A stretch of 64,000 bases of DNA from a phage (GCA_024686575.1 GCA_024686575.1_4863.1), one strand, 5' to 3'; counted from the stretch's first letter, positions 10,679 through 64,000 are shown. The notes: generated by a model from the letters alone, not told the origin. Program-made: numbers and translations.

Positions 10679-12355
10679 TTAGTACAACACTGGTGCAGTT
10701 TTCTCACCATTGCTCAGAAGCAAGTAAGTGTGCTGCGGCAGCTGCATCAATACAATTGCATGTGGCACGTTTTCCTGTACTGCTTCGTAGATAGACACAA
10801 CCGGGTCTGCGGTATTGCCCAGAGACGCTACCGTAACTACGTCGTGTTTATCAACAGAATGGTACATGCCTGGAATCACGATGGTGAACTGGCTCTGAAT
10901 CAGATTAACCACCTTGCCAGAATCGCTCAGCTTGATAGTCAGTTTGCGCAGAGAGTTTGCTACCATCAGGAACAGGTCACGGAACCAGTCTTCATATTCA
11001 CTTACGCCGTTGTCGCCAGCGGTTGCTGTGAACAGATCTTTTACGAAGAAATCAATATCGCTGATTTTCCGTTCGAAATCGATAGCTTTGAACTTCGGCA
11101 CATCTTTACCACGCTTAGTGCCCAGCGACAGCGCGTTGTGTACCAGGAAAGTGATATTCGCCAGGTACGCATTAGCAAAGCGAGAAATTTCACTGATAAC
11201 CACTTCTGCTTCGCTGCTGTTCGCAATCGCATATTCGTGCAGTTCTTTCGTGTTCTTACGCAGTTCATCGATCGTGCGTTTCACCTTAGCCATGATAGTT
11301 TCAACATCTTCTACCAACGCCAAGTTGTCGAGATCGGATTTCAGTGCGTCGTGCTTAGCAACGAATTGTTTCATGCGTTCGCACATGTCAGTGTTAACAC
11401 CGACCAGATACGCGCGATAGCTATCCCGTGCACGCACAATCAGGTCAGCCCCGTCGTAGAAAACAACCTCTTCATTACCGTTAAAGATATCTTGCAACGG
11501 TGTAGCCCAATCACGCGTTTCCGCGTAAACAGATTGCTTAATGCGACTGTTAGCTTCCTTCGCTGGAATCGACATTTTAAGCTCGGGGGTTTTCAGCTCG
11601 TGAAGTGCGTAGTCTTCCATCAAATCAATCTCCTGCAGAATGTTGTTAATTGGGCCATTGGTAGTGTCCTTCTCGGTTTCTTCTGTTGCGCCGAGTGGGG
11701 AAAGCACTGGGTTATTAACTGTAGCATTAGACACCGGCATTGGTTGTACAGGCACCTGTGCTGGTTCAGGCTGGGGCTGTTGTGCTGTGGCTGGGACTAC
11801 TTGCGCCGGTTGTGGGTTCAGGATAGGATCACTAACCAGGTTAAGACCTGCACCGCCAGCAATCACGGTTAGTGCCGCATCCGTGTTACCAATCTTAACA
11901 CCACCGGATGGCGCAGAAGACATGGTCAAGCCATCAGTAACACGCACACCGCCAGAACTGTTACCGCCCAGTAACCCGCCTGCGTTGCTACCACCACCTA
12001 AACCACCACTGCCACCCAAACCGCCGGACTGCTGAGAACGAATTTCGGCAAGAATCTTACCGACTTGTTCCCAAGCATTAACCAGTTTGGTGTGACGATC
12101 GTCGTTATACGCGTCGCCCGCGTTATGCACCTGCTGATAGGCAGCTGCTTTATACGCGTCGACCGCATATGCGATAACCTGTGCTTCACTACCCCCTTTG
12201 GATGCTGCCCATGCCGCAACATACGTCGCAATCTTTAACGCCTGATCTGGCGGAATGCTACGACTACGCATCACGTTATTCAACTGCGACAGTACCGCGT
12301 CCTGATCGAGGTGTTTAACGATGACGTTTTTGATTTGTTCAACAGTAATGCTCAT
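10679..12355 (-). CDS. hypothetical protein with central Gly-rich and Pro/Gln-rich linker
   Basis: 558 aa; AAGGAG Shine-Dalgarno; internal low-complexity stretch GGLGGSGGLGGGSNAGGLLGG followed by PQPAQVVPATAQQPQPEPAQVPVQP; terminator downstream. Confidence 0.7.
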   Translation of the reverse strand: MSITVEQIKNVIVKHLDQDAVLSQLNNVMRSRSIPPDQALKIATYVAAWAASKGGSEAQVIAYAVDAYKAAAYQQVHNAGDAYNDDRHTKLVNAWEQVGKILAEIRSQQSGGLGGSGGLGGGSNAGGLLGGNSSGGVRVTDGLTMSSAPSGGVKIGNTDAALTVIAGGAGLNLVSDPILNPQPAQVVPATAQQPQPEPAQVPVQPMPVSNATVNNPVLSPLGATEETEKDTTNGPINNILQEIDLMEDYALHELKTPELKMSIPAKEANSRIKQSVYAETRDWATPLQDIFNGNEEVVFYDGADLIVRARDSYRAYLVGVNTDMCERMKQFVAKHDALKSDLDNLALVEDVETIMAKVKRTIDELRKNTKELHEYAIANSSEAEVVISEISRFANAYLANITFLVHNALSLGTKRGKDVPKFKAIDFERKISDIDFFVKDLFTATAGDNGVSEYEDWFRDLFLMVANSLRKLTIKLSDSGKVVNLIQSQFTIVIPGMYHSVDKHDVVTVASLGNTADPVVSIYEAVQENVPHAIVLMQLPQHTYLLLSNGEKTAPVLY

Positions 12356-12386: not shown

Positions 12387-14165
12387 TTAGCGGCCGATTT
12401 TAGCAATGTCTTCTTCGGTCGGTCTGATGTACGGGTCCAGTTTAGGATTCCGCATCATTACCAAACTTGGGTTGGTCTTCATGTACGGGTTGAGGATGTT
12501 TGCCTTAAACGGTGCCGACTTAGGAATATAGTAGACGTTACCGCATTCCAGATGCGACGCGGATGCGTGCTTAGTACGGTCGTTCAAGTTAACGGTCTTG
12601 CCTCCTTTCTTCGAACGCTTAGCATCGGTTTCGGTTTGACCGATGGCGTGCGTAGACACTGCCAATACCATTGATTCTGTAGAGGCATTGAAGAAACTGA
12701 TACCGCCGTTGCTCGTAATGGTGCGCATCACCAGATTGAGCACGATCTGTTTGTTCAGTGCGTCTCGAATAGACTTCGCCGCTGTCTCTGGAGTCCGATG
12801 TTCCAACTGCCCCAGCTTCCAACGTATTTTCGAGATCGTTGTGGTAAAGCCACGTTGACCCAACAGTAGGTAATCGGTTACCGTGAGACGTTTTCCGTAC
12901 ATAGACGGAATATCATCTTGCTTGGTAAGTCGAGTGCGTACCATCAGCTGCGTGGTATACCAGAGGAAATCAAACATATCCAAATCATCAGGGATGGACG
13001 GATCGTTTGCCATCAGCTCACCACGGAAGGTGCTGTTGACATAGCGTTCACATTCCTGGAAGTGGCTGTCCATACTGCGACTCAGTTCGATATCCGAAGG
13101 CTTCAGTCCGCGAATACTGCGGCCCAACACTTCACGCCAAGACGCTGCAGAGTTGAGGTTTGCAATATCTTCGTCCATTGCCATTTCATTAATCTGTGTA
13201 AACAGCCCCGGTAATGTTGGCGCACGACCGTTCTTACTGTTCTGTTTACCTGCGTAGTAGTGCGCTGCTTTGAAGAATGCGGCAGTCGCTACCAGCAACA
13301 GATGTTCGTTTTGATCCCAACGCCCTGCATCGGTGTTAGGCATATCTTCACGTTTAACCAACAGCACGTACTGGATGGTCTTCGCGAGTTGTGGCTCACC
13401 GGATTGAATCACCACATACTTCGTTAAGTCCACATCACGTACTTTAATCGCTGGCCAAATCGCCACATCAACGCCCGCATAACGCTTCACGGCTTGTTTA
13501 AAGCCATAACGCCCAAAGAGCCAATACATCAGTGGCTTCTCATCTGTGTCGTGTCCAATCTGTCCAGTGGAGACAAACAGATTCGATGTACCCGGCAAGA
13601 ACAGCTGCTCAGGGCGACCATTCACCAGAATCTTCGTTGGTTTCTTACAGAACTTGATAGACACCTTGCGAGTGAAGTCAAAGTTAATAAAGATACCGCC
13701 GTGCTCACGACATATACCAGGTTGATGGATTACAGGTGCTACGTGGTACGTTGTACCATAGTAGTTCATTAAGCCGCCACGACGAATAAACGGCAGGCTC
13801 ATTGGTCGTTGCACCGGGCGAGGATCACCTGGAACTCGGAACGAGGCCATTACCATATACGTGTCAGTGGATGAGATGTTAATAATTGACCGGCCACGAT
13901 TATTTCGTGAATTGTTATCCGACTTCGATAACTTAAAGATAAAAGCTTCAAACGGCGACATTTGGCGACAACCTAATACCGTTAACCCTTCTGGTAATTT
14001 CGGGTTATCGATTTCATCATACGTCAACTCACGACGTAGAATGGTTGCCACACGATCATGTATCCCATCTTTAGCTTGTGTGTACCCAACTCCTTCTGCA
14101 ATTGCACGATTAAAAGGCACTATTTCGCCTGCCTCTTTAATCTTCCTAATCGCATCTTTAAACAC
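12387..14165 (-). CDS. hypothetical protein
   Basis: 592 aa ORF; no recognisable motif by eye. Confidence 0.7.
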   Translation of the reverse strand: MFKDAIRKIKEAGEIVPFNRAIAEGVGYTQAKDGIHDRVATILRRELTYDEIDNPKLPEGLTVLGCRQMSPFEAFIFKLSKSDNNSRNNRGRSIINISSTDTYMVMASFRVPGDPRPVQRPMSLPFIRRGGLMNYYGTTYHVAPVIHQPGICREHGGIFINFDFTRKVSIKFCKKPTKILVNGRPEQLFLPGTSNLFVSTGQIGHDTDEKPLMYWLFGRYGFKQAVKRYAGVDVAIWPAIKVRDVDLTKYVVIQSGEPQLAKTIQYVLLVKREDMPNTDAGRWDQNEHLLLVATAAFFKAAHYYAGKQNSKNGRAPTLPGLFTQINEMAMDEDIANLNSAASWREVLGRSIRGLKPSDIELSRSMDSHFQECERYVNSTFRGELMANDPSIPDDLDMFDFLWYTTQLMVRTRLTKQDDIPSMYGKRLTVTDYLLLGQRGFTTTISKIRWKLGQLEHRTPETAAKSIRDALNKQIVLNLVMRTITSNGGISFFNASTESMVLAVSTHAIGQTETDAKRSKKGGKTVNLNDRTKHASASHLECGNVYYIPKSAPFKANILNPYMKTNPSLVMMRNPKLDPYIRPTEEDIAKIGR

Positions 14166-15286: not shown

Positions 15287-15985
15287 TTAGGGTATTAGGC
15301 GTTGGGCTATTTCGCGGAGTTGGTCGCGGGTTAAATCAGCCAACTTCTGGTCGCCGAAGCCCAACTTCAGACCCAGCTCGTACCCAGCTTGCGGATACGT
15401 GTTCGTGTTTGCTACTGAGAGGAGTGCATCGGCTATCTTTACCATCGTTAACTCGAGAGACGCATACGGGGCGGGGATCGGCTGATTCACGATTTGGTAA
15501 TTATAACGCACTGCGGCGTTATCGTAGTCAAACTCCATCCTTCTGCCGAGAACGTTAAACGACTCCGCAGAATAACTACCAAGTGGGTGATTGGCTTTTT
15601 CCCACAAATCTTTCCGTTCAGTAAACCCAGTCGCGAAGTTCTGACGTATGGTGTCGAATATTTGCGTTGCCTGGCTAGGGTGTATATTTTTCAGCTCATT
15701 GTAGTCGTAGTCGGCGATGGAATATAGAGTGAACACAACACCGTTTATATTTAACTGCGGATAATCCATCCGCAGACTGTCATCACCTTGTAAATGAAGT
15801 TCCCACATCCTTACCCACTGCAATATCGCGCTTACCGCATCGTGACTGAGATAAAAATTAGTAGGTTCTTCAGGATTTTCACGGAAGGGAACAGAGCATT
15901 CCGATACAAAAAAGCCGGCTGCCATAAATCCTCTGCCGTCGAACATAGGCGCAACTAATCTTGATTTTTCTAAATTGATTACCAT
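15287..15985 (-). CDS. hypothetical protein
   Basis: 232 aa; AAGGAG Shine-Dalgarno 8 nt upstream of ATG; preceded by the AGATAGATATTATCT motif and the terminator of the upstream gene. Confidence 0.7.
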   Translation of the reverse strand: MVINLEKSRLVAPMFDGRGFMAAGFFVSECSVPFRENPEEPTNFYLSHDAVSAILQWVRMWELHLQGDDSLRMDYPQLNINGVVFTLYSIADYDYNELKNIHPSQATQIFDTIRQNFATGFTERKDLWEKANHPLGSYSAESFNVLGRRMEFDYDNAAVRYNYQIVNQPIPAPYASLELTMVKIADALLSVANTNTYPQAGYELGLKLGFGDQKLADLTRDQLREIAQRLIP

Positions 15986-16025
15986 TACTGTCTCCTTAAG
16001 TTAAAACCGAACGACTCTCTCCCTA

Positions 16026-16040
16026 AGATAATATCTATCT
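16026..16040 (-). promoter_or_regulatory. conserved motif 2, copy downstream of the 766 aa gene terminator
   Basis: Exact 15-mer 41 nt upstream of the ATG at 15985, immediately after the terminator U-run. Confidence 0.5.
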
Positions 16041-16089
16041 ATAAATTTTTAGAAAAAAAGAAAAAGCTTACTCCCCGAAGGGAGTAAGC
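16041..16089 (-). terminator. rho-independent terminator after the highly expressed 766 aa gene
   Basis: Stem GCTTACTCC/GGAGTAAGC followed on minus strand by TTTTTCTTTTTTTC. Confidence 0.8.
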
Positions 16090-16120
16090 TAATCTTAGGC
16101 AACGTAATCCTTACGGATTA

Positions 16121-23032: not shown

Positions 23033-23830
23033 TTACATCAAATCCAGGCTCTGTGAGACCGCAACTTCCGGTTCACTGATACCGCTGGTCACTGACAATG
23101 TAAAGCGACGATCGTTAATCACTTCAACTGCTTCGCTCGCACGCAGTGAATACTTGTCGGCGATTGGCAGTACACTGTTATCGTTCTGCGGCGGCAGAAT
23201 CTGTGCCGGGAACGGAATGTACGAGTTGAAAGTGATATACGGACCGACCTGCATCATCGGGAACACTTCGTTCACGTTATTTGACATCCCTTCATCCGAA
23301 GAGATAACGGAGTGACGCAGACAGGCACGCAGGCCAACGGTGTACTCCGGATCGCGCGATTCGCCGATCAGTGCGAAACGGAACACATTGAAATCGTAGT
23401 CGTCTGCAGCGAAGTGTTCTGGCAGGATACGCTGTACGTATTCAGGGTAAGTGGTCACGTCACCCGGAATAACATTCACGGCGAGTTTCTGTGCCAGGAA
23501 ATACGCATTCGCGAAACCATACTGACCCGCCAGCGCGGCTGAAATCGGTGCAGTGGTTACGCAGTGCAGGAACAAGTGATAACCCAGCCCGCCTTTATCT
23601 TCGATTGCCAGGTCCTTCTTACTCTGCACACCGTCAGCAGTATAAATAACTGCCACTGTCTTATCCAACGTCGACGCCATGACAAAATCCAACTGCACCT
23701 CACCGCTCTGCGGTAGTACCTTAACCAGACGATCCCAGAGCTTGGTCGGTTTGGTGAAGTTAGCGGCTTCGTACGCATCAATGTCGAGAACAGTTTGGCC
23801 GGTCATGCGAAAGGTGTGAATCGCTTTCAT
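23033..23830 (-). CDS. hypothetical protein
   Basis: 265 aa ORF; AAGGAA Shine-Dalgarno; terminator downstream. Confidence 0.7.
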   Translation of the reverse strand: MKAIHTFRMTGQTVLDIDAYEAANFTKPTKLWDRLVKVLPQSGEVQLDFVMASTLDKTVAVIYTADGVQSKKDLAIEDKGGLGYHLFLHCVTTAPISAALAGQYGFANAYFLAQKLAVNVIPGDVTTYPEYVQRILPEHFAADDYDFNVFRFALIGESRDPEYTVGLRACLRHSVISSDEGMSNNVNEVFPMMQVGPYITFNSYIPFPAQILPPQNDNSVLPIADKYSLRASEAVEVINDRRFTLSVTSGISEPEVAVSQSLDLM

Positions 23831-23873: not shown

Positions 23874-25187
23874 CTAAGCTGTAAATTTTTCATCTTTGAG
23901 CCAAAGACTCAGTTGTGATTGGGTGTTATAGCGTCCTGATGCCATCGTTTGACCATCGACAGCGGACTGGAACACTTCACCCACCAACGTGCCGTAGCGG
24001 GTATAGACCCCATACTCGTTGGCAAAAACGTATTTTACTGGCATACCGGGATATAGGATGCCGTGCGTTGAACGGTTCCAGGTTGTTTGCACAATCGTAC
24101 CCAGACCCATCTCCAGTTTAGACCGCTGCGGTTTATCGGTATCACTAAAGTGTTTATCAGGATCGATTGGTGCGTTAACCACGCCGCCTGGATACGCAGC
24201 AGGGTCGGCCTGCGCCACAAACTTATCAGGTGTGGTCATACTGATGTCGCCAGGCGTAAATGAACTACTACGCCCATCCAACACACGTACAGACCCTACC
24301 CTGTAACCCGTACCGTGGTTAAGCGCGGCCTGGTCACGGTATTCCAAACTACTGGTGTCGCCGCCACAAATCAGATAGATAACATTACCCGCGATATCGG
24401 TGGTGCGGTCAATGTGAGCAGCCTGTTCACGAGGCAGATTATAGATGACCAGTTTAGGCTTCGTTGTGTTATTAAACTTCAACGAGTCCCAGGGCCGATA
24501 CAGATACCAGCGCTGCAAGTATTGGAAGACCCCAATACCTTTGCTGTAAACACCGTAATGGTTCTGCAGATAATCAAACACGCTTAAGAAGTCTTCGGAG
24601 TCCGGTATAACGATATCACGATATGCCTGCTGTTCTTCCTCGTCGTATTCAATTCCTTTCAACTGCCCCTCTGCAGCCACCCCGTCCGGCAACGTATCCG
24701 CCAGTATCGAGCGTGCCACTGTTAACCCATCGGTTTCGTGGTAGATACCGCCCACTTGACGGTTACGCAGGAACCACATCGACTCATCCATCAGCTCCAA
24801 TGTTACCAAAGCGATAGATTTCTCATCAGACTGACTCAAGAACATCGTCGGTGTTTCCGCGTTGTGGTCGCGGTTATTTATCACGATGCCGCGGTAGTTA
24901 AAGACCCCCGCGATTTTCTGTCCACGACGCAATAACAGCTTTACCTTCAAATCCCCTTCTGCGGACGATGTGATCATTCGCATGTGGCTGTAGGGTATAG
25001 CCAAGGTGAGATGTGTCAATAAACAGATATCGCGCGTAAAGTGACCCGTGTGGATGATAGACAGCATCTTCAACACCGTCACTGGGGCACCGTGCACCGT
25101 GAGGAATATCCCGTAGTCGATAGCCGGTAACCCCCGAGCATTAGCGATGTGACCGTTCGCCATCTGTTGTAACCGACCAAACGACAT
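23874..25187 (-). CDS. hypothetical protein
   Basis: 437 aa ORF in tightly packed minus-strand array 23033-28561. Confidence 0.7.
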   Translation of the reverse strand: MSFGRLQQMANGHIANARGLPAIDYGIFLTVHGAPVTVLKMLSIIHTGHFTRDICLLTHLTLAIPYSHMRMITSSAEGDLKVKLLLRRGQKIAGVFNYRGIVINNRDHNAETPTMFLSQSDEKSIALVTLELMDESMWFLRNRQVGGIYHETDGLTVARSILADTLPDGVAAEGQLKGIEYDEEEQQAYRDIVIPDSEDFLSVFDYLQNHYGVYSKGIGVFQYLQRWYLYRPWDSLKFNNTTKPKLVIYNLPREQAAHIDRTTDIAGNVIYLICGGDTSSLEYRDQAALNHGTGYRVGSVRVLDGRSSSFTPGDISMTTPDKFVAQADPAAYPGGVVNAPIDPDKHFSDTDKPQRSKLEMGLGTIVQTTWNRSTHGILYPGMPVKYVFANEYGVYTRYGTLVGEVFQSAVDGQTMASGRYNTQSQLSLWLKDEKFTA

Positions 25188-25726
25188 TAGCGACCTCCTC
25201 GGGCTCTATAAGCGTACTCAATACGTTTCATAATCGTATCATTAAAACGGTGGAGTTTAGACTCCAGGCGGACCTGCCCAAATAACGACTGAACACAGTC
25301 CGCCATCGTTGCCGTGGGTTTCTTGAAATACCCGTAGCGGTTAGCCACAGGAAACAGTTTCGAAGCCAGCACATTGAACTGACGCAACCCTTCGATAGGG
25401 ACTTCCCGGTAAATCAGCGTCGGGTTCTCCAGATAGTTCAGCCAGTCCGCAAGGTGTTCCATAATCCACCCGTACACTTTAATCCCGTCATGCGGGTCGT
25501 GTACATCTAACGCACCACCGGTCGCTAAATACTCAGCAGCTTCTGAGGGGTGCAGATAGATAGGCTTCATGTTCAGTAACAACGCTTGTCGTTTCTTCGG
25601 GTCTTCTGGCAAGAACAATCCGTGTTCCTGACTGGCGTAGGTTGTGATGGTTGCGTATTCCGGTACCCGGAAGAACACCCACGCTTTAAACAGCATAAAT
25701 GCTGCACTGCGCTTCTTCTCCGACAT
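25187..25726 (-). CDS. hypothetical protein
   Basis: 179 aa ORF; start/stop overlap with neighbours. Confidence 0.65.
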   Translation of the reverse strand: MSEKKRSAAFMLFKAWVFFRVPEYATITTYASQEHGLFLPEDPKKRQALLLNMKPIYLHPSEAAEYLATGGALDVHDPHDGIKVYGWIMEHLADWLNYLENPTLIYREVPIEGLRQFNVLASKLFPVANRYGYFKKPTATMADCVQSLFGQVRLESKLHRFNDTIMKRIEYAYRARGGR

Positions 25727-31438: not shown

Positions 31439-32698
31439 TTACTTAGACTTTTCGTACGCACCGATACCGGCGCTGATGTAGCCGTTAACGCCGGCGATCA
31501 GGTTTTTCTGGCCAGTTGCAACGCAACGTTCGGTCCAGGAGATGTACTGGTTCGCAACGGTGATTGCACGACGTGCAACACGGACGTTGGAAGTCAGTTC
31601 AGCGTTGTCGTCGATCTTCACGCCGTCGATACGTTTCAGCAGCGCCTCAATAGCCCGCTCGTACGATTCTTGAGCCTGGTTATTTTTGTGGTACGCTTTC
31701 ACGTTCTCTTCGACTGCTTTACCCAGCTGGTTGAAGAACGCAACCAGAGAAGACAGCGTCTGAGCAGACGGAGTAGAAACAGATTTTTCTACGCTGCCTT
31801 CAGCATCGATAACGGTGAAGGAAGCTTCCAGGTCATCCCCGTTCACTTTCACGTCAGCTTTACCGATCTGGTTACCCAGCAGTTGAACTTCGCCCGCTTT
31901 GCCTGCAGTGGCTTTGTTAACCGCTGCTGCGAAGCCGCTGTTCAGTTTCCCGCCTTCAACTGCGCTGACCATGCTGGTTGCAGCTTTGACCACTGCATCC
32001 TGCTCGCCGTAGATGCTGCCGATAGTAGACAGAACACCTTTCAGGACGTTGATGTCGTTACCGACGAACTTACCACCGGTGGTCAGGTTCTTAATGAACC
32101 CACCGCTAACGGTGTCTTTCTTCTGCTTGCCCAGACCACGCAGAGCCGCGTCATATTTCTTAGCGCGCGCCTGAATGGATTTACCCTGGTTGCTGAACTT
32201 GAGCCAGCGATCTTTGATTTTACGGCCTTGTTCTTTCAGCCAGTCGAAGATACGCTGCAGGAACGCTTTGATGTCGTCCCACAGTGATTCACGAGCAACC
32301 TGACGGCGTTTACGTGCGCCGTAAGATTCCTGCGCAACGCTTACGCGGTGATCGAATGCCCAACGTTTACGGATAGATTCCTGCGCAACGTCCAGCTGCT
32401 CAGCAGCTTCGTCAGGCATATCTTCTTCCACTTCCATTGGCTCTTCGCCATCTTCGCCTTCGCCGTCAGCAGCGGCTTCAGCAGCATCAACTGCATCCAG
32501 CTGTGCATCAGTTTCGTCACCGTCTTCTGCCAGCACGTCTGCTTCTGCGTCCAGCTGGTCGATCGGTTTGGTGTCGTGCTCGATGTCAGCCAGAGTACCT
32601 TCCACGGACTCAGCCGGCAGCTCGATGCCATCTGGAACGACAGTGCCTGCGCCTTCGACAGATTCACGAGCGAGTTTACTTTTTACAAAGTTAGCCAT
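31439..32698 (-). CDS. abundant protein, paralog 1 of tandem pair (candidate head or scaffold-like structural protein)
   Basis: 419 aa; strongly biased codon usage; N-terminus MANFVKSKLARESVE and C-terminus GAGIGAYEKSK shared with the adjacent gene; acidic N-terminal region; terminator downstream. Confidence 0.8.
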   Translation of the reverse strand: MANFVKSKLARESVEGAGTVVPDGIELPAESVEGTLADIEHDTKPIDQLDAEADVLAEDGDETDAQLDAVDAAEAAADGEGEDGEEPMEVEEDMPDEAAEQLDVAQESIRKRWAFDHRVSVAQESYGARKRRQVARESLWDDIKAFLQRIFDWLKEQGRKIKDRWLKFSNQGKSIQARAKKYDAALRGLGKQKKDTVSGGFIKNLTTGGKFVGNDINVLKGVLSTIGSIYGEQDAVVKAATSMVSAVEGGKLNSGFAAAVNKATAGKAGEVQLLGNQIGKADVKVNGDDLEASFTVIDAEGSVEKSVSTPSAQTLSSLVAFFNQLGKAVEENVKAYHKNNQAQESYERAIEALLKRIDGVKIDDNAELTSNVRVARRAITVANQYISWTERCVATGQKNLIAGVNGYISAGIGAYEKSK

Positions 32699-55340: not shown

Positions 55341-57446
55341 TTACAACTCAATTACCACAGCGGCTCCTAGGTCATCGTACAACGATGCCGGGATTTTGTA
55401 CTCGGTATAAAAACCAACGCGATCGATATTCCCCTGCTGTCCTTCAAACAACAACATCGGAATTGCCGAGCGCAAACTAATGAGCGTGTTGTGATCGACA
55501 AACCGTTTCCCTGTAGCGTTAGTAGAATCCTCACTGTCAAATCCTACTGCCGGGAACGGATTGGTTGGCGACTCTACACGAGATATCGCCAACATAATCG
55601 CAATGTGCGTCATCGGTATACCACTCAGCTTACGCTGGATATACTTAAACGTGTCCATCAACGCATAAGTACACTGTTTCTCTGTAGCACCACCCATTTC
55701 AACCAACGTCACCGGTTTCACACGACCTTGTTTCTTGTTCAGCTTCACAGTCGAGGCTGTGTTGATGATTTCCACAATGTCTTCGTTCTTATCGGCAGCA
55801 ATCGAACGGAGCTTGGTTTCTAAGCCGGCTACGAACTCCGCCATCGATTCAGAACGGTTGGTGTAGACCAGGACCGGGTGTTTCGGGTTCCATCCTTTTA
55901 AGGGGATTTCTACCGTCTTCTTCTCGATACGAATGTTCGCTCGTTGTTTCAAGAAGTAGTGCAGGAACGGTTTAGAGAAGTTCCCACAAACACCCATTCG
56001 CACATCGATAGAATCCGCAGCGATTATCTGCCCATCTTCTAAACGACGTTGGAAAGTTAAGTCGGTGATTTCTGGTAATGCCGTTTCATCAATTGCATCG
56101 AGATCTTCATGATACGCAATCTGGCTCAGCTCCGAATAAACTTTGTCGGTAACAACCAACTCGTATTCTGACCAATTCCCACGCTGTGGTTTTGGCAGCA
56201 AGCACAACCCTTTCAGAGAGTTATGTTTGTATTCGGTCATATACTCACGCATACGTGGGGTGAGTACCAGGTTGAGCAGATAACGCAAGAAGTCAAGGTG
56301 CTTGGTAGAGAGAATTCCCTGTGTACCCTTTTCCGAGATGGACGTGGATGCCAGGTGACCTGGTGACGTACCTTCAGAGAGGTTATAAATCAAATCCCCC
56401 ATACAGGTCGCACAGATGGACTGATTCGCCATCTCTTTACAGGTCATGGCACTACGGAAGACCAGCGGTTTGCCAACCAGGTCTGCGTATCCGCCTTTCT
56501 CAAATCGCAACCACGGACCATTATCGCCTTCTAAACGATAACGCATCCCCACCATCGCTTTATAGGCACGCTCATCCAGCTGCGTATCCTTAAACGTGTA
56601 GCGGTGTGCGTGTGTTGTACCGCAGTCGTCGTACGTGAAATACATCAGTACGTTTGCTGCCAGCTGCAGTTTACGTGAGGCGTATTCTGCTTCGGCAATC
56701 TTGTCAGTGTTGTACAGGTGGGAACGTGAAGTTGCACCAGATTCTTTCAAACGCGAAATAACCGAATGCATTCCGGTAAAGAAGCCTTCCCACACCTGAT
56801 TGGTGTATACACGTGAGTCAATTTCTGACGTTTTGCCGCGCACGAACGCTTGCAGTACCTGGTTCATCTTCACGGTACCGTCCAGTACCGACATTACGAC
56901 TGGGTTATACCGCAGCGCAGGGTCTTTGAAGATTTTCTCGATAAGCTTATACGCTTCTTCAACCATATCCTGACCATCTTCATCGTAGCCAGTAGGATAC
57001 TGCACTTCCCACTGACGGATGAGTTCGAAGTTCGGGTGGTCGTAGATCTCCATCATCGTATCAAAGTCGATTGTCGTACAATAGGACAGCAAGTTCTTCA
57101 CTGTCATGTTGAACGCATCGGCGTAGACATGTTGACTCAGGATATAACGCGTTTCAGCAAGGTCGACACCTGCTTTACGGGCCAGTACCGCTGCTTCCGA
57201 CATAAAGTCCAGATGCAGGTCATCTGTTGCTACCTGACCTGGACGATACGCCATGGTCGATGGAGTGGGCACCTGCGGATACAGACGCGACACACCCCAA
57301 TACGGCCAGCTGAGTTTGATGTGGCGACTAGACATTTCCAACGACTTACCATCGTCGAAAGTCACGTAATAACGCCCGCGTAGTTTCCACACCTGATCAG
57401 AGTTAAGCATACGCAAATCACGTACGTGTACAGAACGACCCGCCAT
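55341..57446 (-). CDS. multisubunit RNA polymerase beta-prime-like subunit, C-terminal part
   Basis: 701 aa; ASTSISEKGTQGILSTKH matches the beta-prime trigger-loop signature AAQSIGEPGTQLTMRTFH; preceded by a Cys cluster (C-x8-C-x2-C) as in the C-terminal Zn site of beta-prime. Confidence 0.7.
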   Translation of the reverse strand: MAGRSVHVRDLRMLNSDQVWKLRGRYYVTFDDGKSLEMSSRHIKLSWPYWGVSRLYPQVPTPSTMAYRPGQVATDDLHLDFMSEAAVLARKAGVDLAETRYILSQHVYADAFNMTVKNLLSYCTTIDFDTMMEIYDHPNFELIRQWEVQYPTGYDEDGQDMVEEAYKLIEKIFKDPALRYNPVVMSVLDGTVKMNQVLQAFVRGKTSEIDSRVYTNQVWEGFFTGMHSVISRLKESGATSRSHLYNTDKIAEAEYASRKLQLAANVLMYFTYDDCGTTHAHRYTFKDTQLDERAYKAMVGMRYRLEGDNGPWLRFEKGGYADLVGKPLVFRSAMTCKEMANQSICATCMGDLIYNLSEGTSPGHLASTSISEKGTQGILSTKHLDFLRYLLNLVLTPRMREYMTEYKHNSLKGLCLLPKPQRGNWSEYELVVTDKVYSELSQIAYHEDLDAIDETALPEITDLTFQRRLEDGQIIAADSIDVRMGVCGNFSKPFLHYFLKQRANIRIEKKTVEIPLKGWNPKHPVLVYTNRSESMAEFVAGLETKLRSIAADKNEDIVEIINTASTVKLNKKQGRVKPVTLVEMGGATEKQCTYALMDTFKYIQRKLSGIPMTHIAIMLAISRVESPTNPFPAVGFDSEDSTNATGKRFVDHNTLISLRSAIPMLLFEGQQGNIDRVGFYTEYKIPASLYDDLGAAVVIEL

Positions 57447-59683
57447 TATTTATCCTCCCGAATTGGACGCACTAATTCAAAACCTTCACAGCGATGGATG
57501 TTACGTATCATCCTGTCAATCTGCGAATCACCCATTGGCAGTTTCTTACGATCGACCAGCACCCCTGGATTGGTTGGTGTTGGCGAGTTATACAGCCCCG
57601 TTACGATCGCACGGTGTACCGCAGGGTTATTAGCGCGGTCATGAGTTTCGGGGAAGTTGCCCGGACCAAAGCCGTCGGTAAGACGCTGCTCGGAAGGACC
57701 ACCCCACTTCAACCCTTTCAGGTTAATCGGATATGAACCACGTCCTTGGTTGGATGCATCAATACAACCCAAATAGTTCGTGTACATCGACGAGATACTG
57801 GAGAACTCACGACCGGTTTTATCCAGGCGCAGAGTCTCTACCATGCCGACGTAAAACTGGTTCTTCGTCCACTCTTTCTCACCCTGATAGTTAGTAATCA
57901 GTAGCTTAGACTTGCGTGGTGCATACTCGCCTAGAGCACGGCAGATTTCTACCTGGGTAGCATTCAATTCGTGGGGAAGCCAGATACGAATCGTGAAGTC
58001 GTAAATCTCTTTAAAGAGTTCCAGACGTGACCCAGTATCCGGGTGACTGGCATTGAGATAGAATGTCCAGCGTGGGTTATAGCGATCGATATAGTCCATC
58101 AGGATTTCCCAGGCTTCATCAACCTGGTTGGCGGCAAGTAAAGGTTTCAACCGCATCTTCAACTGCTCGGATGCAGCAGACCAATACATGTGGAACAGCG
58201 CAGCATAAGTCGAACGACGAATTACGGCGTTCATGGAACGAATGACATGCACACGTTCTCCGAACTCGTTAATCGGCATTTCTTCATCAGGCCGCACTGC
58301 GCCCACGATACCTTTTGTACCTGAACGGTCGGTGATTTTCGATGAGACGGTAACTGGGATTGGATAACGTACCACGATGCGTATCGTGTAACTACCAATT
58401 GGGTCCCAGAGACCACGCTGAACCGGCTGCGCCAGTTTGTTTAACACGTTCTTATCAGCAGAACGGTTATACTCGCCTTTACGCATGGCTTCATCGTATT
58501 CACGACCAATCTCTTCACGGAAGTCGTTATAGACTTCATACGTCTCAGAACAGAACGCCTTGTCAAGAATCTCAAACGCTTTCGGTGACCAGACGATATT
58601 CTTGTCCTTGGACATCGCAAAATAGAACCGTACGATATCATTGTAAAAACGTTTCAAAGCGTTCGCGTAGTGATCTAACTCGCGTTTGTTCTCTTCGGTA
58701 CATGCGATATTGTTAACACCACGATCGCATTTGGTTTCGTCCCGCCATACCTGAATATCAACGACACGAGAACCGGTACGTTCCATCTTTTCAAAGTCGC
58801 CAGCCAGTCGCGCTTTGTAATGCTCAGGGTCGGCATCAACATACTCACAACGGTCGAAGTGCGGAGAGACATGTTGTGTTTCACCTACGTGCGAGTCAAT
58901 GGCTGCCCATAGCTTATCGAAACGGCGCGCGGCAATAACCAACCCATCATCACGAATTGCCTGTCCTTTATTGGGCAGGTACTGTGGTCGACGAACGCCA
59001 TCAATACCCGTTGTCCCATACGTATCAAGCAGGTACTCGTCGTCGCGCAAGGTAAAGTCGATTGCACGCAAACCATAAGCGTGCATCGCTTTCGCTGCAG
59101 TTTCGGAGATGGTGTACGAGTCCTCGATAATGTCCGGGTGCGACATCGTCACGGTGTGCAGGTTGACCCCATCGACAAACTCACCGTCTTTCTGTGCCGG
59201 CAGCACGGTAAGCATTTCATCTTTTTCCAGGTGCTGCGTCTGCCCGCGCAGCAACGCCTGAAGTTTCCCAGTAGCCTCTTTCTTAGACGAGAAAATGTTA
59301 TCGTGGTTGGTGTAATACTTAATATCGATTACATCAATCATCACTTTGCGCTGGTTGGTTAAATCTGCGCGCGTGAAGAAGATAACATGTTGGAGCGGTT
59401 CGTGATCCCCTTCACGACCATAGCGTGCAAAAACAGCTGCACGAGTAACACCTTCTTTGGTTGTGTAACTGCACACGGTACCACTGTCTTCCACGATATC
59501 GTTAAAACAATAATCGTGGTAGTTCACATCAGCGCCGGTAAAATGGATAGTCGGATCTGGATTGTCCAGTGGTACCGCCGACTTCATATGTCCACCCACC
59601 ATTGAGGCACGTGCCCCAGATACGCCAGTGATATTCACCTCACGGTCAGCAACGCTTGACATGAGTTCGACTGGTGTTTTCAT
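57446..59683 (-). CDS. multisubunit RNA polymerase beta-like subunit, C-terminal part
   Basis: 745 aa; ITDRSGTKGIVGAVRPDEEMP matches the beta signature [20 protein letters not shown]; C-terminal GGPSEQRLTDGFG resembles GGQRFGEMEVWA; stop overlaps the start of the beta-prime-like gene. Confidence 0.7.
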   Translation of the reverse strand: MKTPVELMSSVADREVNITGVSGARASMVGGHMKSAVPLDNPDPTIHFTGADVNYHDYCFNDIVEDSGTVCSYTTKEGVTRAAVFARYGREGDHEPLQHVIFFTRADLTNQRKVMIDVIDIKYYTNHDNIFSSKKEATGKLQALLRGQTQHLEKDEMLTVLPAQKDGEFVDGVNLHTVTMSHPDIIEDSYTISETAAKAMHAYGLRAIDFTLRDDEYLLDTYGTTGIDGVRRPQYLPNKGQAIRDDGLVIAARRFDKLWAAIDSHVGETQHVSPHFDRCEYVDADPEHYKARLAGDFEKMERTGSRVVDIQVWRDETKCDRGVNNIACTEENKRELDHYANALKRFYNDIVRFYFAMSKDKNIVWSPKAFEILDKAFCSETYEVYNDFREEIGREYDEAMRKGEYNRSADKNVLNKLAQPVQRGLWDPIGSYTIRIVVRYPIPVTVSSKITDRSGTKGIVGAVRPDEEMPINEFGERVHVIRSMNAVIRRSTYAALFHMYWSAASEQLKMRLKPLLAANQVDEAWEILMDYIDRYNPRWTFYLNASHPDTGSRLELFKEIYDFTIRIWLPHELNATQVEICRALGEYAPRKSKLLITNYQGEKEWTKNQFYVGMVETLRLDKTGREFSSISSMYTNYLGCIDASNQGRGSYPINLKGLKWGGPSEQRLTDGFGPGNFPETHDRANNPAVHRAIVTGLYNSPTPTNPGVLVDRKKLPMGDSQIDRMIRNIHRCEGFELVRPIREDK

Positions 59684-60110: not shown

Positions 60111-61478
60111 TTAACGTAAATTAGCTGATGAGAATGGTAGGTTGCCTAAACTGCTGCTACTTCCGCCACCTAAACCACCCAGACCACCTAACACGTCACT
60201 ACTCCCTCCTAAGAGGTTGGTGCTACCGCCGCCCAACTGCGTGCTACCCCCCAAGAGATTATTACTACTTCCCAGCAAACCAGAACCCAGACCACTTTCT
60301 TTCGTCACCGCATTACCACGCAGCGCTTCACCGAGAGACAGTTCTTTAATTGTCCCTTTCGGTAAATGGCCGTTGTTCTCACGCAGCGCTTCCTGAATCT
60401 TCGGTGCTAACGCATTGAAGCTATTAGCCGAAGACGCCTGTTGCGCTTTCTTCGCACGGAAATAGTTTACCGGATCATTGAGATCAAGATTTTCCTGCGG
60501 AGCTTGTTGAGAAGCTAAAGCAACGACCGGCTTTGTGCCGGCAGGTGTACGCCCGATACGGAAATCTGTTGCGGTGGTGTCTGTTGCCTGATCGTTACGT
60601 GGGCCGGTATTATACGGCAGAGTTTGGATAACGTTATCATAAACGCTCATGTTATCCAGTTGGCCAATCCATTCTTCTTCTAACGGACGCAGTGGAGTGT
60701 GGTCACGCAGACCACGAACCACTTGATTGTAGTTGGTCACGTATTGTGCCCAACCGCGTGCCAAAGAACCGAAGTACGGACGCGGATCGTTAGAACCAGT
60801 AACCGAAGGATACCAACCAAACACTGCAGTTAGCAGGTTAAAGATAATGACCTTATCCTGCTTACGCTGGAGCTTGGCACCGAAGAATGTTGCCGTACCA
60901 TCCAGTGACTCTTCTTCAAACATGTGTTTGTAGTTCGCCACGCGGATATATTTGATACCCTCAATGGTCATATCGCTGGAGATGAAGATACTGGTGATCT
61001 TTGTCTTTTTATCTTCTTCCAGCAAACCGTAAACATAGTTCTTCACCGCTTGCCAGCTCTGAACCAGTTTCTTATCCATCGTCGGATCTTTCAGGTCAGC
61101 ACAAACCACATCGCTTAAAAACTTCTTGTAAGCTGCCAGACGGATATTCTTTCCTTCGGCTGCTGTTTCCAAAATAGCATCGATTAGCTCGAAGCTTTTC
61201 AGGAAGAGGTTCGCGTTGATGGCTTTCTTCAGGAAGCGAATCGTTCCAGATTCGCCAGCCAGTACCGATTCACACAGTGGGTGGAACGCATGACACTCAC
61301 TACCTTCATCGTCTTCCAACCCACGCTTAATCATCGCTGCAGTTGGAAGCACCAAGCGGCGCTTCACTTTGTTGTAGGTGAACATTGCTGGATGACCATC
61401 ATCGATAGTCAGCATGTCACCTTCGAATCCGTATCCGAGAGAGGTCAGAAACGAACGGTAGAATTCAATCAATTTCAT
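60111..61478 (-). CDS. hypothetical protein with Gly/Leu/Ser-rich C-terminal tail
   Basis: 455 aa; C-terminus LGSGLLGSSNNLLGGSTQLGGGSTNLLGGSSDVLGGLGGLGGGSSSSLG; terminator downstream. Confidence 0.7.
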   Translation of the reverse strand: MKLIEFYRSFLTSLGYGFEGDMLTIDDGHPAMFTYNKVKRRLVLPTAAMIKRGLEDDEGSECHAFHPLCESVLAGESGTIRFLKKAINANLFLKSFELIDAILETAAEGKNIRLAAYKKFLSDVVCADLKDPTMDKKLVQSWQAVKNYVYGLLEEDKKTKITSIFISSDMTIEGIKYIRVANYKHMFEEESLDGTATFFGAKLQRKQDKVIIFNLLTAVFGWYPSVTGSNDPRPYFGSLARGWAQYVTNYNQVVRGLRDHTPLRPLEEEWIGQLDNMSVYDNVIQTLPYNTGPRNDQATDTTATDFRIGRTPAGTKPVVALASQQAPQENLDLNDPVNYFRAKKAQQASSANSFNALAPKIQEALRENNGHLPKGTIKELSLGEALRGNAVTKESGLGSGLLGSSNNLLGGSTQLGGGSTNLLGGSSDVLGGLGGLGGGSSSSLGNLPFSSANLR

Positions 61479-61490
61479 GGTTAATAATCC

Positions 61491-63191
61491 TTAATCAATG
61501 AGACCGTTGCCGAGTCCGTTTCCGCCTATACCGCCTAAGCCACCACCCAGGTCAAGACCTCCAAGAGGATCTAAGCCACCTGTGTTAGTTGGAATGTTAG
61601 ATAGCATTCGACCCCGGCCTTGGCCTTTCTCGAATTCTGTATAACCTTCTTCCACGGCTTTCAGCAGCGTTGCAGTGTTCTGTGCCAGCTCACCAACGTA
61701 TTTGAGATCGGTGGTGTTGCCGGTATGGAGACGGAATTGCATAAACGACGCGTAGGTGTAATATTCCAGCGGTTCGTCGTCGACACGGATTTCAATACGA
61801 GTAACGGTCCCCAACAATGCGGTGACCAGCATGTGACAGCGAATATGGTTATGTTTAGTAACCTGAACCATCGCTTCTTTCATGTTCTGCAAGAAACGAC
61901 GACCTAATGCAGCAGGTAACTGATGATGTGTGATGCTGCTGACTGAGTTAGGAATAACTTCCAACGTAGGCTCTATCATGATATCCGTGTTACGGTTATC
62001 AAAGACAAAGCTCACTTCGCCAATCAGGTTACGTGACATAATCGGCCCGATAGACATAGCCAGATCATACGCAACTAGACTACCCTGAGTAGAAAAGCCG
62101 TTACGTCCAATCCAGTGGTCGGTTTGGTTAACCAGCCCTGCACCCAACCCACGGCGACTTGCCAGCGCCAGCGATTCACGGATACATTCATCCAACCGCA
62201 TTGGGTTGACAATCGCATTACGCAAATCAGCCAAACGGAACGTCGCCTTACTGGTTGCTTTCCAACCGCCAGATACATCAGACATCCCGTTCTGGAGTGC
62301 TTGACGCATCGCAGCAATCAGTTCGTGGTTGCTGTAGTTACGGATAACACCACGCTGCTTCAATTCAGATTCAACGCCGATGGAGTTATTACCTGCAAAG
62401 AAGCTTTCCACGCTACCGAGTTCGGTATCTACCCCAGAGCTTGCCAGATACGCATTACTGATTGCAGATACGTAGTTTTCCGGACGCTGGAGTTGGGATA
62501 CCATCAACTGTGGTGCAGAGCTACTGGTTGCGGATAGCACAGAGTCGCTCGTTGGAACGAACTTCTCACCGCTATTCATTTCAATACGTTTTACCATATC
62601 CGCTGCTTTCGCGATCGAAATGATATCTACCGTACTTTCTGTTTGACCTTCAACAGACAGCGCTTTCGATAAAACGTAGTTATCCAGTAGACGGAATGAG
62701 TCTGGGTTCAATGTTTTGCCGCCCAGGGCATCGTGTGTATACGTTGCCTGTAAGCCGTAGATGTCGTTAATGTACAACACCATATCGTCCGGCAGCAGGC
62801 TACCCAGGCTGGTTTCTGCCTGACTGGTATAACCGGAGACGATGTATTGCGTTTCCTGAGTGCGTGTTGCATTCAGAGGTTTAGCAATAAACACCGCCAC
62901 GAAGTTAAAGATACCGGTATCACGTGATTCCCATTGGAACTGTACAGGACGATTGTCATCATCGGACACGTTGATGAATGGACGCTCAAAACCGTTCTGG
63001 GTGCCATCGAAGCCCACGATGGCAGATAATGCTTCTTGATACTGCTGTGTTCCCACAGCTTTTTCCCCGCCCAGTTCAACCGCTGCTGCTAAGTCATCCA
63101 GTGCACCCGTCGATGCGTTAAAGCCGATGCGGCGACGAACTTGCTCTGGAACATCGTAGACCGGATACATCAGTAGATTTACAAGCTGCAT
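61491..63191 (-). CDS. hypothetical protein with Gly/Leu-rich C-terminal tail
   Basis: 566 aa; AAGGAG Shine-Dalgarno 9 nt upstream; C-terminus GGLDPLGGLDLGGGLGGIGGNGLGNGLID. Confidence 0.7.
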   Translation of the reverse strand: MQLVNLLMYPVYDVPEQVRRRIGFNASTGALDDLAAAVELGGEKAVGTQQYQEALSAIVGFDGTQNGFERPFINVSDDDNRPVQFQWESRDTGIFNFVAVFIAKPLNATRTQETQYIVSGYTSQAETSLGSLLPDDMVLYINDIYGLQATYTHDALGGKTLNPDSFRLLDNYVLSKALSVEGQTESTVDIISIAKAADMVKRIEMNSGEKFVPTSDSVLSATSSSAPQLMVSQLQRPENYVSAISNAYLASSGVDTELGSVESFFAGNNSIGVESELKQRGVIRNYSNHELIAAMRQALQNGMSDVSGGWKATSKATFRLADLRNAIVNPMRLDECIRESLALASRRGLGAGLVNQTDHWIGRNGFSTQGSLVAYDLAMSIGPIMSRNLIGEVSFVFDNRNTDIMIEPTLEVIPNSVSSITHHQLPAALGRRFLQNMKEAMVQVTKHNHIRCHMLVTALLGTVTRIEIRVDDEPLEYYTYASFMQFRLHTGNTTDLKYVGELAQNTATLLKAVEEGYTEFEKGQGRGRMLSNIPTNTGGLDPLGGLDLGGGLGGIGGNGLGNGLID

Positions 63192-63203: not shown

Positions 63204-64000
63204 TTAAGAATTAAACCATTCAACTTCTTCTAACTTGCGACGTGCATTCAACACCATAAACTCCGCCAGGCTATTGTGCAGTGACAAGTGAGGTATATAG
63301 TTTGGCTGATCCGTCTCACACTTCAGCAGCGCAGCTGCTTCTGGTGTAGCCCTGAGATGGAACAGATACGGGTTGATGTGATCCTTGTGTAACAAGGTCA
63401 GTGATTCCCGTGGTGTAGATTGCGGTTCGAGATTACGCGGGTTGCGATACTCCTGAAGATAATATCTATCTAAATCTGCTTTGAGTTCAGATCGAATTGG
63501 GTCGGCTGCATAACCGGCAGACATCTCAGAACGCACCATATTGCAACTTAACAGTTGCGCAACGTCATACATTCCATAATTGAGATAAGTTGCCTGTGCT
63601 AACGCCATGCCGTAGCGAAACGCTTCTGGTCCACATTCGGTATACGTCTTATAATGCGCGCTACGATGGAGTGCTAATGCGACTAACCATTCGTGGAGCG
63701 TATAGACAGGACCGTCGTGTGTTGCCAGTTGCGAATCAATCAATAACTTAACATCTGCTGGAGCGGCATTATCCAGGCGCATTGTTTTCAAGAAAGAGCG
63801 GTATTCTTTAAATACGTACTCGGTACGGACGTATTCTTTCATCTGGGCAGGAGAACGTGCCTGCACCAAATCCATGGCGTTTATCTTACCCTTTTCGCCA
63901 TTGAATATCACACTTTCTGGATGCGCTTTTAACAGCACCGGCTGGTTAGAGATTTTGTTTGCAAAACCTGTTTCAATCTCTTGTTTAACCAGAAAATACA
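63204..64000 (-). CDS. hypothetical protein, 5-prime partial (continues beyond window end)
   Basis: Track ORF starts at a GTG at 63938, but the frame stays open to the window end; contains an internal copy of the AGATAGATATTATCT motif. Confidence 0.55.
   Translation of the reverse strand, partial: YFLVKQEIETGFANKISNQPVLLKAHPESVIFNGEKGKINAMDLVQARSPAQMKEYVRTEYVFKEYRSFLKTMRLDNAAPADVKLLIDSQLATHDGPVYTLHEWLVALALHRSAHYKTYTECGPEAFRYGMALAQATYLNYGMYDVAQLLSCNMVRSEMSAGYAADPIRSELKADLDRYYLQEYRNPRNLEPQSTPRESLTLLHKDHINPYLFHLRATPEAAALLKCETDQPNYIPHLSLHNSLAEFMVLNARRKLEEVEWFNS
63457..63471 (-). promoter_or_regulatory. conserved motif 2, intragenic copy
   Basis: Exact 15-mer inside the coding sequence of 63204-64000 (encodes DRYYL), about 270 nt upstream of the next gene start at 63191. 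Confidence 0.35.

Follow-up and report, generated by a model that had tools for sequence, protein, structure and literature searches.

In phiKZ, PhiPA3 and 201phi2-1, the protein importer PicA/Imp1 forms puncta at the shell of the phage nucleus and is needed for selective import of cargo, and its phiKZ form, gp69, is essential (PMC12571901). In PhiPA3, ChmC (gp61), PicA (gp63), gp64 and the portal protein localise to the nuclear shell (PMC10643120), and phiKZ gp70 is listed as a nuclear protein. ChmC ends in an Asn/Gly-rich intrinsically disordered region, which drives the formation of RNA-protein condensates (PMC11077065). Here we analyse a window of 64,000 nucleotides of a phage genome (GCA_024686575.1) which encodes counterparts of PicA and gp70, called gp31 and gp32, and a third protein, gp78. 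All three proteins carry Gly-Leu repeats of the GGL/LGG kind, and the results show that the type of repeat changes in concert in the three proteins from one phage lineage to another.

The window belongs to an SPN3US-like chimallivirus, a giant phage: the region 60111-63191 is 99.2-99.3% identical to Salmonella phage SPN3US and its close relatives (Seoulvirus), and the 455-residue gp32 and 558-residue gp78 are each 100% identical to SPN3US proteins (tblastn). Gene numbers are taken from the SPN3US record NC_027402 and from the published numbering (capsid gp75, portal gp81, virion RNA polymerase gp42). By its sequence, gp31 is identified as the orthologue of PicA/Imp1, the importer of the phage nucleus, and its role in import is known from these orthologues. 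Since pairwise BLASTP gives no match between gp31 and phiKZ gp69, we base the orthology on PHROG profiles, synteny and fold matches. Residues 1-535 of gp31 match phrog_3141 over positions 4-505 of 510 (E 6.6e-157), the same profile that phiKZ gp69 matches over positions 1-508 (E 2.7e-179), and the AlphaFold2 (AF2) model of gp31 matches proteins of about 500 residues from many other jumbo phages (E 1e-15 to 1e-21). The phiKZ gene order gp67-68-69-70 and then non-virion RNA polymerase (nvRNAP) is matched at the gp29-gp32 locus, where gp31 sits between a gp68-like and a gp70-like gene, upstream of the nvRNAP beta/beta' genes; the nvRNAP-ChmC-PicA block has this order in phiKZ, PhiPA3, RAY, Psa21, Noxifer and FLC9 as well.

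For gp32, a homologous N-terminal domain of about 300 residues (BLASTP E 4e-13 to phiKZ gp70), joint membership of gp32 and gp70 in phrog_3520 and the recovery of PhiPA3 gp64 by tblastn with gp32 point to orthology with phiKZ gp70 and PhiPA3 gp64, of which the latter is known to associate with the shell. The folded domain of gp32 (residues 1-283) is predicted with high confidence (predicted local distance difference test, pLDDT, about 90, AF2); its model has no match below E 0.37 in the PDB (Foldseek), and the fold gives no functional hint. gp78, a member of phrog_8185, is essential and absent from the virion, and the amber mutant 78(am3) shows no detectable virion proteins (PMC5105663). Pfam gave no match for gp31, gp32, gp78 or the portal protein.

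A six-frame scan of the window finds at least 8 Gly per 20 residues in exactly five ORFs (open reading frames), namely gp31, gp32, gp78, the capsid protein gp75 and the portal protein gp81. Translation thus confirms the initial annotation, which had placed Gly-rich segments on these five proteins and described the proteins as otherwise dissimilar; they are indeed spread over five different PHROG families. The Gly density of each segment exceeds that of the shuffled protein (P <= 0.006 for each of the five, 0/5000 shuffles for three). The GGL/LGG kind makes up three of the five, as had been proposed: the tripeptides number 8 in gp31, 8 in gp32 and 6 in gp78 (each 0/5000 shuffles), 2 in the portal protein, 0 in the capsid protein and at most 1 in any other ORF of at least 100 residues. 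Both the gp31 tail, which lies outside the phrog_3141 profile, and the gp78 linker hold 12 Gly in 20 residues. The tails are predicted to be disordered, with AF2 pLDDT of about 33 for residues 532-566 of gp31 and about 35 for residues 388-455 of gp32 (33-36 over both tails, compared to about 80-90 in the adjoining folded domains).

A scan of the whole genome, as the initial annotation had called for, gives the same three proteins. The top three GL/LG densities in SPN3US (per 40 residues) are those of gp32 (10), gp31 (9) and gp78 (7), and the next-highest is at most 5. In the CR5 genome, NPF occurs more than once in just two ORFs, the orthologues of gp78 and gp32, with 4 each.

We compared the segments across lineages with orthologues collected from the protein database, metagenomic contigs, IMG/VR loci and annotated phages, taking as tails the parts beyond trimmed core profiles. 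A search of IMG/VR with a seven-sequence gp78 alignment returned 4 loci only, and gp78 orthologues were therefore reached through loci anchored on the capsid gene. The low-complexity segment is kept, and its repeat type shifts together in PicA, gp32 and gp78. In SPN3US, EaH2 and Asesino-like phages, the type is GGL in PicA and gp78 and GGL / LLGG in gp32. Two metagenomic lineages have SFGSFG...GFGAFGE in PicA, six to nine xFG(G) in gp32 and TFGG / NFG / VFGG in gp78. Caitlin, ChrisDB and L018 carry GNSLLD twice in PicA, GNSLL, SLLD and RLGGLGG in gp32 and RLGGLGG in gp78, while L022 and Wellington carry GSLLGG in gp32 and GSLLGG / GLLGG in gp78, with Gly-Leu repeats other than GSLLGG in PicA (GGSLL, GLGGLGL). 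CR5, Derbicus and Phobos present NNPF four or five times in gp32 and again four or five times in gp78, together with GF / FSFG in PicA. In the distant L029 and L030, the tails of both PicA and gp32 are Arg/Asp-rich.

We quantified this agreement as the correlation of centred amino-acid composition, with P values from permutations that treat lineages as independent and ignore phylogeny and so overstate independence: across 11 lineages r is 0.55 for PicA-gp32 (P=1e-4), 0.50 for gp32-gp78 (P=2e-4) and 0.34 for PicA-gp78 (P=0.003), and across 18 lineages r is 0.57 for PicA-gp32 (0/20000 permutations). The tails of ChmC, capsid and portal, which serve as controls on the same tree, do not co-vary: 12 control pairings over 10-11 lineages give r from -0.18 to 0.18 (all P >= 0.09), and over 18 lineages r is -0.01 for PicA-ChmC (P 0.54) and -0.13 for gp32-ChmC (P 0.92). 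Repeat type tracks phage phylogeny rather than host. We reject a host-driven repeat type, as phages of Erwinia amylovora alone carry four types (GGL, NSLLD, SLLGG, NPF), and we reject a genome-wide compositional bias on the strength of the ChmC, capsid and portal controls and of GC content, which is 0.45-0.52 at the locus within the clade. A joint change of repeat type is hard to explain unless the three segments work together. The proposal of the initial annotation that the segments are a shared interaction or targeting element is therefore supported for gp31, gp32 and gp78; it is not supported for the set of five, as the capsid and portal tails keep their own compositions.

Glycine richness itself, which had been taken as the shared property, is not what is conserved: homologous segments may instead be Phe-Gly, NNPF, Met/Gln/Pro, Trp-Gly or Arg/Asp-rich. 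The comparison with homologues gives a mixed picture, in which a segment is kept for gp32, gp78 and portal and is lacking in the phiKZ capsid protein and in PicA of RAY and KpHz_2. For gp32, the Gly-Leu tail represents one local variant of a feature that is deeply conserved in the gp70-like family. A profile search finds 979 relatives at E <= 0.001; among the 150 best representatives 142 were examined, and their last 70 residues are of low complexity (entropy 3.3 vs 3.9 bits; G/S/N/Q/P/T/A fraction 0.64 vs 0.37). These tails set hydrophobic or aromatic stickers among polar spacers (SMFGNN x9, NNPFGNS x7, GWG/GWN, QGYPQQ) or mixed-charge Arg/Asp repeats, and in phiKZ and PhiPA3 they are Met/Gln/Pro-rich. 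At the position of gp78, phiKZ encodes gp124 (L059:5877-8042), in which an N-domain and a C-domain flank a Met/Gly/Gln/Pro segment like the phiKZ gp70 tail. Comparison of the gp78 alignment with gp124 by hhalign shows no homology (probability 0.06), so we call the two proteins positional analogues and not homologues, although gp124 may be a gp78 analogue that has diverged beyond recognition. Knock-down of phiKZ gp124 affects phage transcription (PMC12571901).

At the DNA level, a repeat search of the segments finds 10-11-nt pairs and no tandem array, with a trace of 2.6 copies of a 9-nt unit in the tail of gp32 as the only hit of Tandem Repeats Finder (TRF, minimum score 30). Gly and Leu codons are mixed within the segments. 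The three segments of SPN3US share no DNA stretch beyond a synonymous-recoding null (P = 0.86, 0.93, 0.10), and the same is true in CR5 and an FG lineage (P 0.10-1.0 overall). Taken together, the lack of an array, the mixed codons and the lack of shared DNA indicate that the repeats exist at the protein level only, and with no array and no sharing beyond the null we reject tandem repeats, shared DNA and gene conversion as origins of the likeness. As a separate observation, 13 of the 25 Leu codons in the three segments are TTA/TTG, compared to 82 of 312 in the five whole genes, where CTG dominates. TTA and TTG are one third-position change away from Phe codons, which makes the L-to-F switches of sister lineages mutationally easy.

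Table 1 Segments and genes of the window, with positions counted from its first letter.
Feature	Position	Strand	Description
gp31 C-terminal tail, residues 536-566	61494..61586	minus	NTGGLDPLGGLDLGGGLGGIGGNGLGNGLID; GGL sticker-spacer segment
gp32 C-terminal tail, residues 389-455	60114..60314	minus	(L)LGG repeats, end ...LGNLPFSSANLR
gp78 internal linker, residues 107-136	11948..12037	minus	SQQSGGLGGSGGLGGGSNAGGLLGGNSSGG
gp75 C-terminal tail, about residues 737-766	about 16124-16213	minus	capsid; G/T/A/N/D-rich
gp81 C-terminal tail, about residues 833-913	about 9701-9943	plus	portal; acidic, Gly/Asp/Thr/Glu
gp31, 566 aa	61491..63191	minus	PicA/Imp1 (phiKZ gp69) orthologue
gp32, 455 aa	60111..61478	minus	phiKZ gp70 / PhiPA3 gp64 orthologue
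gp78, 558 aa	10679..12355	minus	N-domain, Gly-Leu linker, Pro/Gln linker, C-domain
gp75, 766 aa	16121-18421	minus	major capsid protein
gp81, 913 aa	7205-9946	plus	portal protein
gp77	12387..14165	minus	nvRNAP subunit (phiKZ gp123 family), immediately upstream of gp78
Two nvRNAP beta/beta' genes	55341..59683	minus	downstream of gp32; SPN3US counterparts annotated RNA polymerase beta subunits
gp30, 3' part	63204..63938	minus	continues beyond window end

The best explanation for switching that is concerted, specific to certain proteins and visible at the level of motifs is that the segments touch one another or share one partner, and from this we infer such contacts, with a role in transport. The reading that we favour, if only tentatively, is that the GGL/LGG segments on gp31, gp32 and gp78 form a co-evolving, disordered sticker-spacer set which makes weak multivalent contacts at the shell. 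The stickers would be hydrophobic residues, Leu in this window and Phe, Met, Trp or Tyr in other lineages, with Gly/Ser/Asn as spacers, and through these stickers the segments of PicA, gp32 and gp78 could bind each other weakly and many times over. A motif in the flexible N-tail of chimallin would be a probable partner borne by the lattice itself, and the contacts could gather the three proteins where import/export takes place on the shell of the phage nucleus, as cohesive FG (Phe-Gly) domains work in nuclear pores.

Chimallin of SPN3US, encoded at 15768-17621 (ACQ60_gp244) and named as a chimallin homologue in PMC9365700, carries PLGGLG in its disordered N-tail, and the GGL lineages generally have PLGG(LG) there. 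The aligned positions read PSFGG and NAFGG in both FG lineages and GFSVG in the NPF lineages. This L-to-F change parallels that of the three proteins; the evidence is thin and the parallel suggestive.

Several points speak against the sticker-spacer set. Truly independent switches number about 4-6, and the gp78 linker window was picked by its G/S/N density. The PicA tail is short (23-52 residues), and since RAY and KpHz_2 do without it, it cannot be a universal requirement. All segments are far shorter than FG-nucleoporin domains. The N-tails of Huxley and L018 chimallin have no clear motif, and in 201phi2-1 the chimallin N-tail (residues 1-47) is not visible in the structure and is dispensable for incorporation into the shell (PMC9365700). 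In phiKZ, gp70 was not pulled down with Imp1 upon co-expression in E. coli, a negative result for which the reason might be that weak tail contacts do not survive a pull-down, and in the main text of the antisense oligonucleotide (ASO) screen phiKZ070 is not among the hits, while 067-069 are (PMC12571901).

Docking of each repeat, as a short linear motif, in the pocket of one folded partner that co-evolves with it explains the data almost as well as mutual sticker contacts, the co-variation equally so, and we regard it as possible though doubtful. Chimallin is the obvious candidate for this common receptor, in which case the tails would tether PicA, gp32 and gp78 within the lattice or onto it and would not hold them to one another. 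Some versions of the repeat indeed look more like discrete motifs than like a diffuse composition (GNSLLD twice, NNPF 4-5 times, RLGGLGG), most tails end in hydrophobic residues with or without an acid (GLID, NSLLD, GFKL, NFKL, FQVL, LGLL) and SPN3US chimallin itself ends in NFKL. Moreover, chimallin self-assembles by N- and C-terminal segments docked on its neighbours (PMC9365700). These NTS/CTS1/CTS2 contacts resemble our case in that flexible terminal segments assemble the same structure; they differ in being single ordered docking segments seen by cryo-EM, as opposed to repeated low-complexity segments on accessory proteins. Repeat number and spacing, however, vary freely among close relatives, which fits multivalent contacts of low affinity better; neither a candidate pocket nor a compensating change in a receptor was identified, and the chimallin motif lies in the N-tail and not in the docking segment NTS.

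The sticker-spacer set can be extended into an analogue of the nuclear-pore barrier, which we consider rather unlikely. Here, cohesive segments on PicA, the gp70-like protein, gp78 and the chimallin N-tails would build, at discrete sites of the shell, a phase that recognises itself and is particular to each lineage, and protein import and mRNA export would pass through it. The likeness to FG-nucleoporin domains lies in the predicted disorder, in short hydrophobic stickers within uncharged Gly/Ser/Asn/Gln/Thr spacers, in one repeat type common to several proteins of one transport machine, and in the setting, selective transport into a nucleus-like compartment; sister lineages even present literal FG repeats (SFGSFGSFG, xFGG x9, SMFGNN x9). 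On the side of the differences, the sticker here is Leu (GGL/LLGG), with a single Phe in the gp32 tail, so that these repeats are not of Phe-Gly type. The segments comprise 31, 67 and about 30 residues with 4-10 stickers, compared to the hundreds of residues of a nucleoporin domain. There is also no known transport receptor and no pore seen to contain the segments. The likeness would thus be functional and architectural only: the segments may work like FG domains, and neither common ancestry nor membership of that family is implied.

Among described phage-nucleus proteins, ChmC (PhiPA3 gp61 / phiKZ gp67 / Imp6) is a close comparison, by its place in the same gene block, its membership of the shell-associated protein set and its Gly-rich disordered C-terminus. 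Its orthologue here, gp29 (phrog_3284), is encoded just outside the window (SPN3US 23070-23723). The ChmC tail nevertheless differs in kind: its composition is the same throughout (GGxYGRGGY...QQ followed by an acidic-hydrophobic end), that is, G/N/Q/Y/R-rich with an acidic end and without Leu/Phe repeats, its partner is RNA, and it shows no co-variation. The ChmC arrangement, an N/G stretch followed by a Ser/Asp/Glu cluster on an RNA-binding Whirly domain, is not found in gp31, gp32 or gp78, which have Leu stickers, no acidic cluster and unrelated folds. The tail of SPN3US gp29 (GGxYGRGGY..GGGYQQQ) reads GGGSFGRGGYGGGQGGGQRSGGGYQQQQ and ends in SYDEFL, a type fixed in all lineages; with it, Gly-rich disordered tails close three of the four genes in the run gp29-gp32.

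Segments of low complexity change rapidly and are often neutral, and those considered here cannot be aligned between lineages, are missing from PicA of RAY and KpHz_2, and often encode Leu by TTA/TTG, from which L/F switches come easily. All of this would suit passive flexible spacers, entropic linkers without a specific partner, whose likeness would arise because proteins synthesised together, in time and in place, face the same constraints of mutation or solubility. The low-complexity tails of ChmC, capsid and portal in the same genomes nevertheless do not switch, and specific motifs (NNPF, RLGGLGG, GNSLLD) recur in two or three of the proteins and, in the genome-wide scans, in these proteins only. 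Neither DNA-level repeats nor traces of gene conversion were found, and a low-complexity C-terminus is kept across the gp70-like family (979 relatives with E <= 0.001, of which 142 among the 150 best representatives were examined). Given the controls, passive linkers with parallel drift are unlikely.

All five segments of the window are Gly-rich and probably flexible, as a single module on all five proteins, acting as one assembly or targeting signal, would require. Such a module is largely refuted, and we deem it very improbable: the capsid and portal tails are Thr-rich or acidic, contain 0 and 2 GGL/LGG and do not co-vary with the other three. The 766-residue protein, which had been called structural, is a phiKZ-type major capsid protein (PF25620, E 7.6e-226). 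Its tail keeps a G/T/A/N/D composition, in which the motif GGNAGDV is conserved across the SPN3US/Erwinia clade, and the phiKZ capsid protein has no such tail. The portal protein belongs to phrog_3004 together with phiKZ gp129. Its G/D/T/E-rich C-terminus, which contains the DLDLD run noted in the initial annotation, is acidic (DDGLGGDD-like) in all lineages and is kept in kind as far as phiKZ gp129, which has an acidic Gly/Asp/Glu tail too. Acidic flexible C-terminal tails are common in phage portal proteins; the likeness to them is limited to gp81 and is unrelated to the GGL set. The Gly-rich segments are thus of three unrelated kinds (the GGL/LGG set, the capsid tail and the portal tail), of which the clade-specific capsid tail and the portal tail conserved to phiKZ are separate, ordinary features.

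Finally, it is extremely improbable that the segments are cleavable propeptides of the prohead protease or products of replication slippage (recent DNA repeat expansions): SPN3US does process many head proteins and low-complexity runs often arise by slippage, but no A-x-E motif of the protease (gp245) lies within or adjoining any of the five segments, the reported cleavages are N-terminal (only the N-terminal 130 residues of gp75, PMC5694885, and only the N-terminal 254-residue propeptide of gp81, PMC10052503, with no C-terminal cleavage of either in published proteomics), gp78 is reported as a non-virion protein, neither gp31 nor gp32 is named in the main text of two virion proteomics papers (PMC10052503, PMC5105663), and the segments show diversified codons and no repeat array by TRF.

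Among the neighbouring genes, gp77 matches phrog_2943 (E 7.9e-188), the family that also contains phiKZ gp123. gp30 is likely, by position alone, the counterpart of the nvRNAP subunit gp68 of phiKZ, as it precedes gp31 (SPN3US 23886-25493) in the way that gp68 precedes gp69. The sole sizeable tandem DNA repeat of the window (32324-32391; 26-nt unit, 2.7 copies, 66% matches, score 71) lies within a 419-residue ORF at 31439-32698. Elsewhere in SPN3US, internal Gly runs that are not of the GGL type occur in a 725-residue protein (133169-135346; GGGGGGDYYAF..GGAGGAPLGPG) and in a 2372-residue protein (205209-212327; GGAGSGDEEMGPPRPGGSGGGKRRR), the latter annotated as a tail fiber in the SPN3US record and called tape measure gp239 in PMC5694885. 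At about 143409-144229 of NC_027402 (L006:4710-5530), a pair of small ORFs, rich to an extreme in Cys/Ser/Gly/Thr repeats (e.g. SSSCTGCSSSCSGGCSGTCTGSCSGGCGKSCS), adjoins two radical-SAM genes, both of which are also present in CR5; together they look like a peptide-modification cassette.

Some extreme C-termini recur: NFKL ends both SPN3US chimallin and Wellington PicA, GFKL ends PicA of CR5 and Phobos, LGLL ends PicA and gp64 of PhiPA3, and FGLL ends Noxifer PicA. These ends may represent a shared terminal docking motif. Several records of the Salmonella phages SPFM5-SPFM20 contain homologues of gp31, gp32 and gp78 with their segments in scrambled order (P0029, P0030, P0033, P0034, P0063, P0064, P0067, P0075, P0076, P0086-P0088), which tblastn shows as 5-7 short pieces and which are probably artefacts of assembly or consensus.

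In the literature that we searched, which included reviews from 2025 and 2026, a disordered tail is described for ChmC alone and the co-variation is not reported. Disordered tails of PicA or gp70 are mentioned neither in the papers on PicA and Imp1 nor in two reviews, and our full-text searches returned no paper that joins the phage nucleus with FG repeats or nucleoporins. What is new here is a co-evolving repeat dialect common to three proteins: the importer of the phage nucleus, a protein associated with the shell, and an essential protein whose function is unknown.

How proteins and mRNA pass through the closed chimallin shell is the main open question on the phage nucleus. PicA/Imp1 is genetically essential for import, and the co-switching makes gp78 and the gp70-like protein candidates for components of that import machine. 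It also offers a physical hypothesis for that machine, in the form of multivalent sticker contacts or of tails docking on chimallin. If the analogy with the nuclear-pore barrier were true, no component could change its dialect (GGL, FG, NSLLD, NNPF, Met/Gln, Trp-Gly or Arg/Asp) without all the others changing at the same time, and co-infecting chimalliviruses would be separated by a built-in incompatibility barrier.

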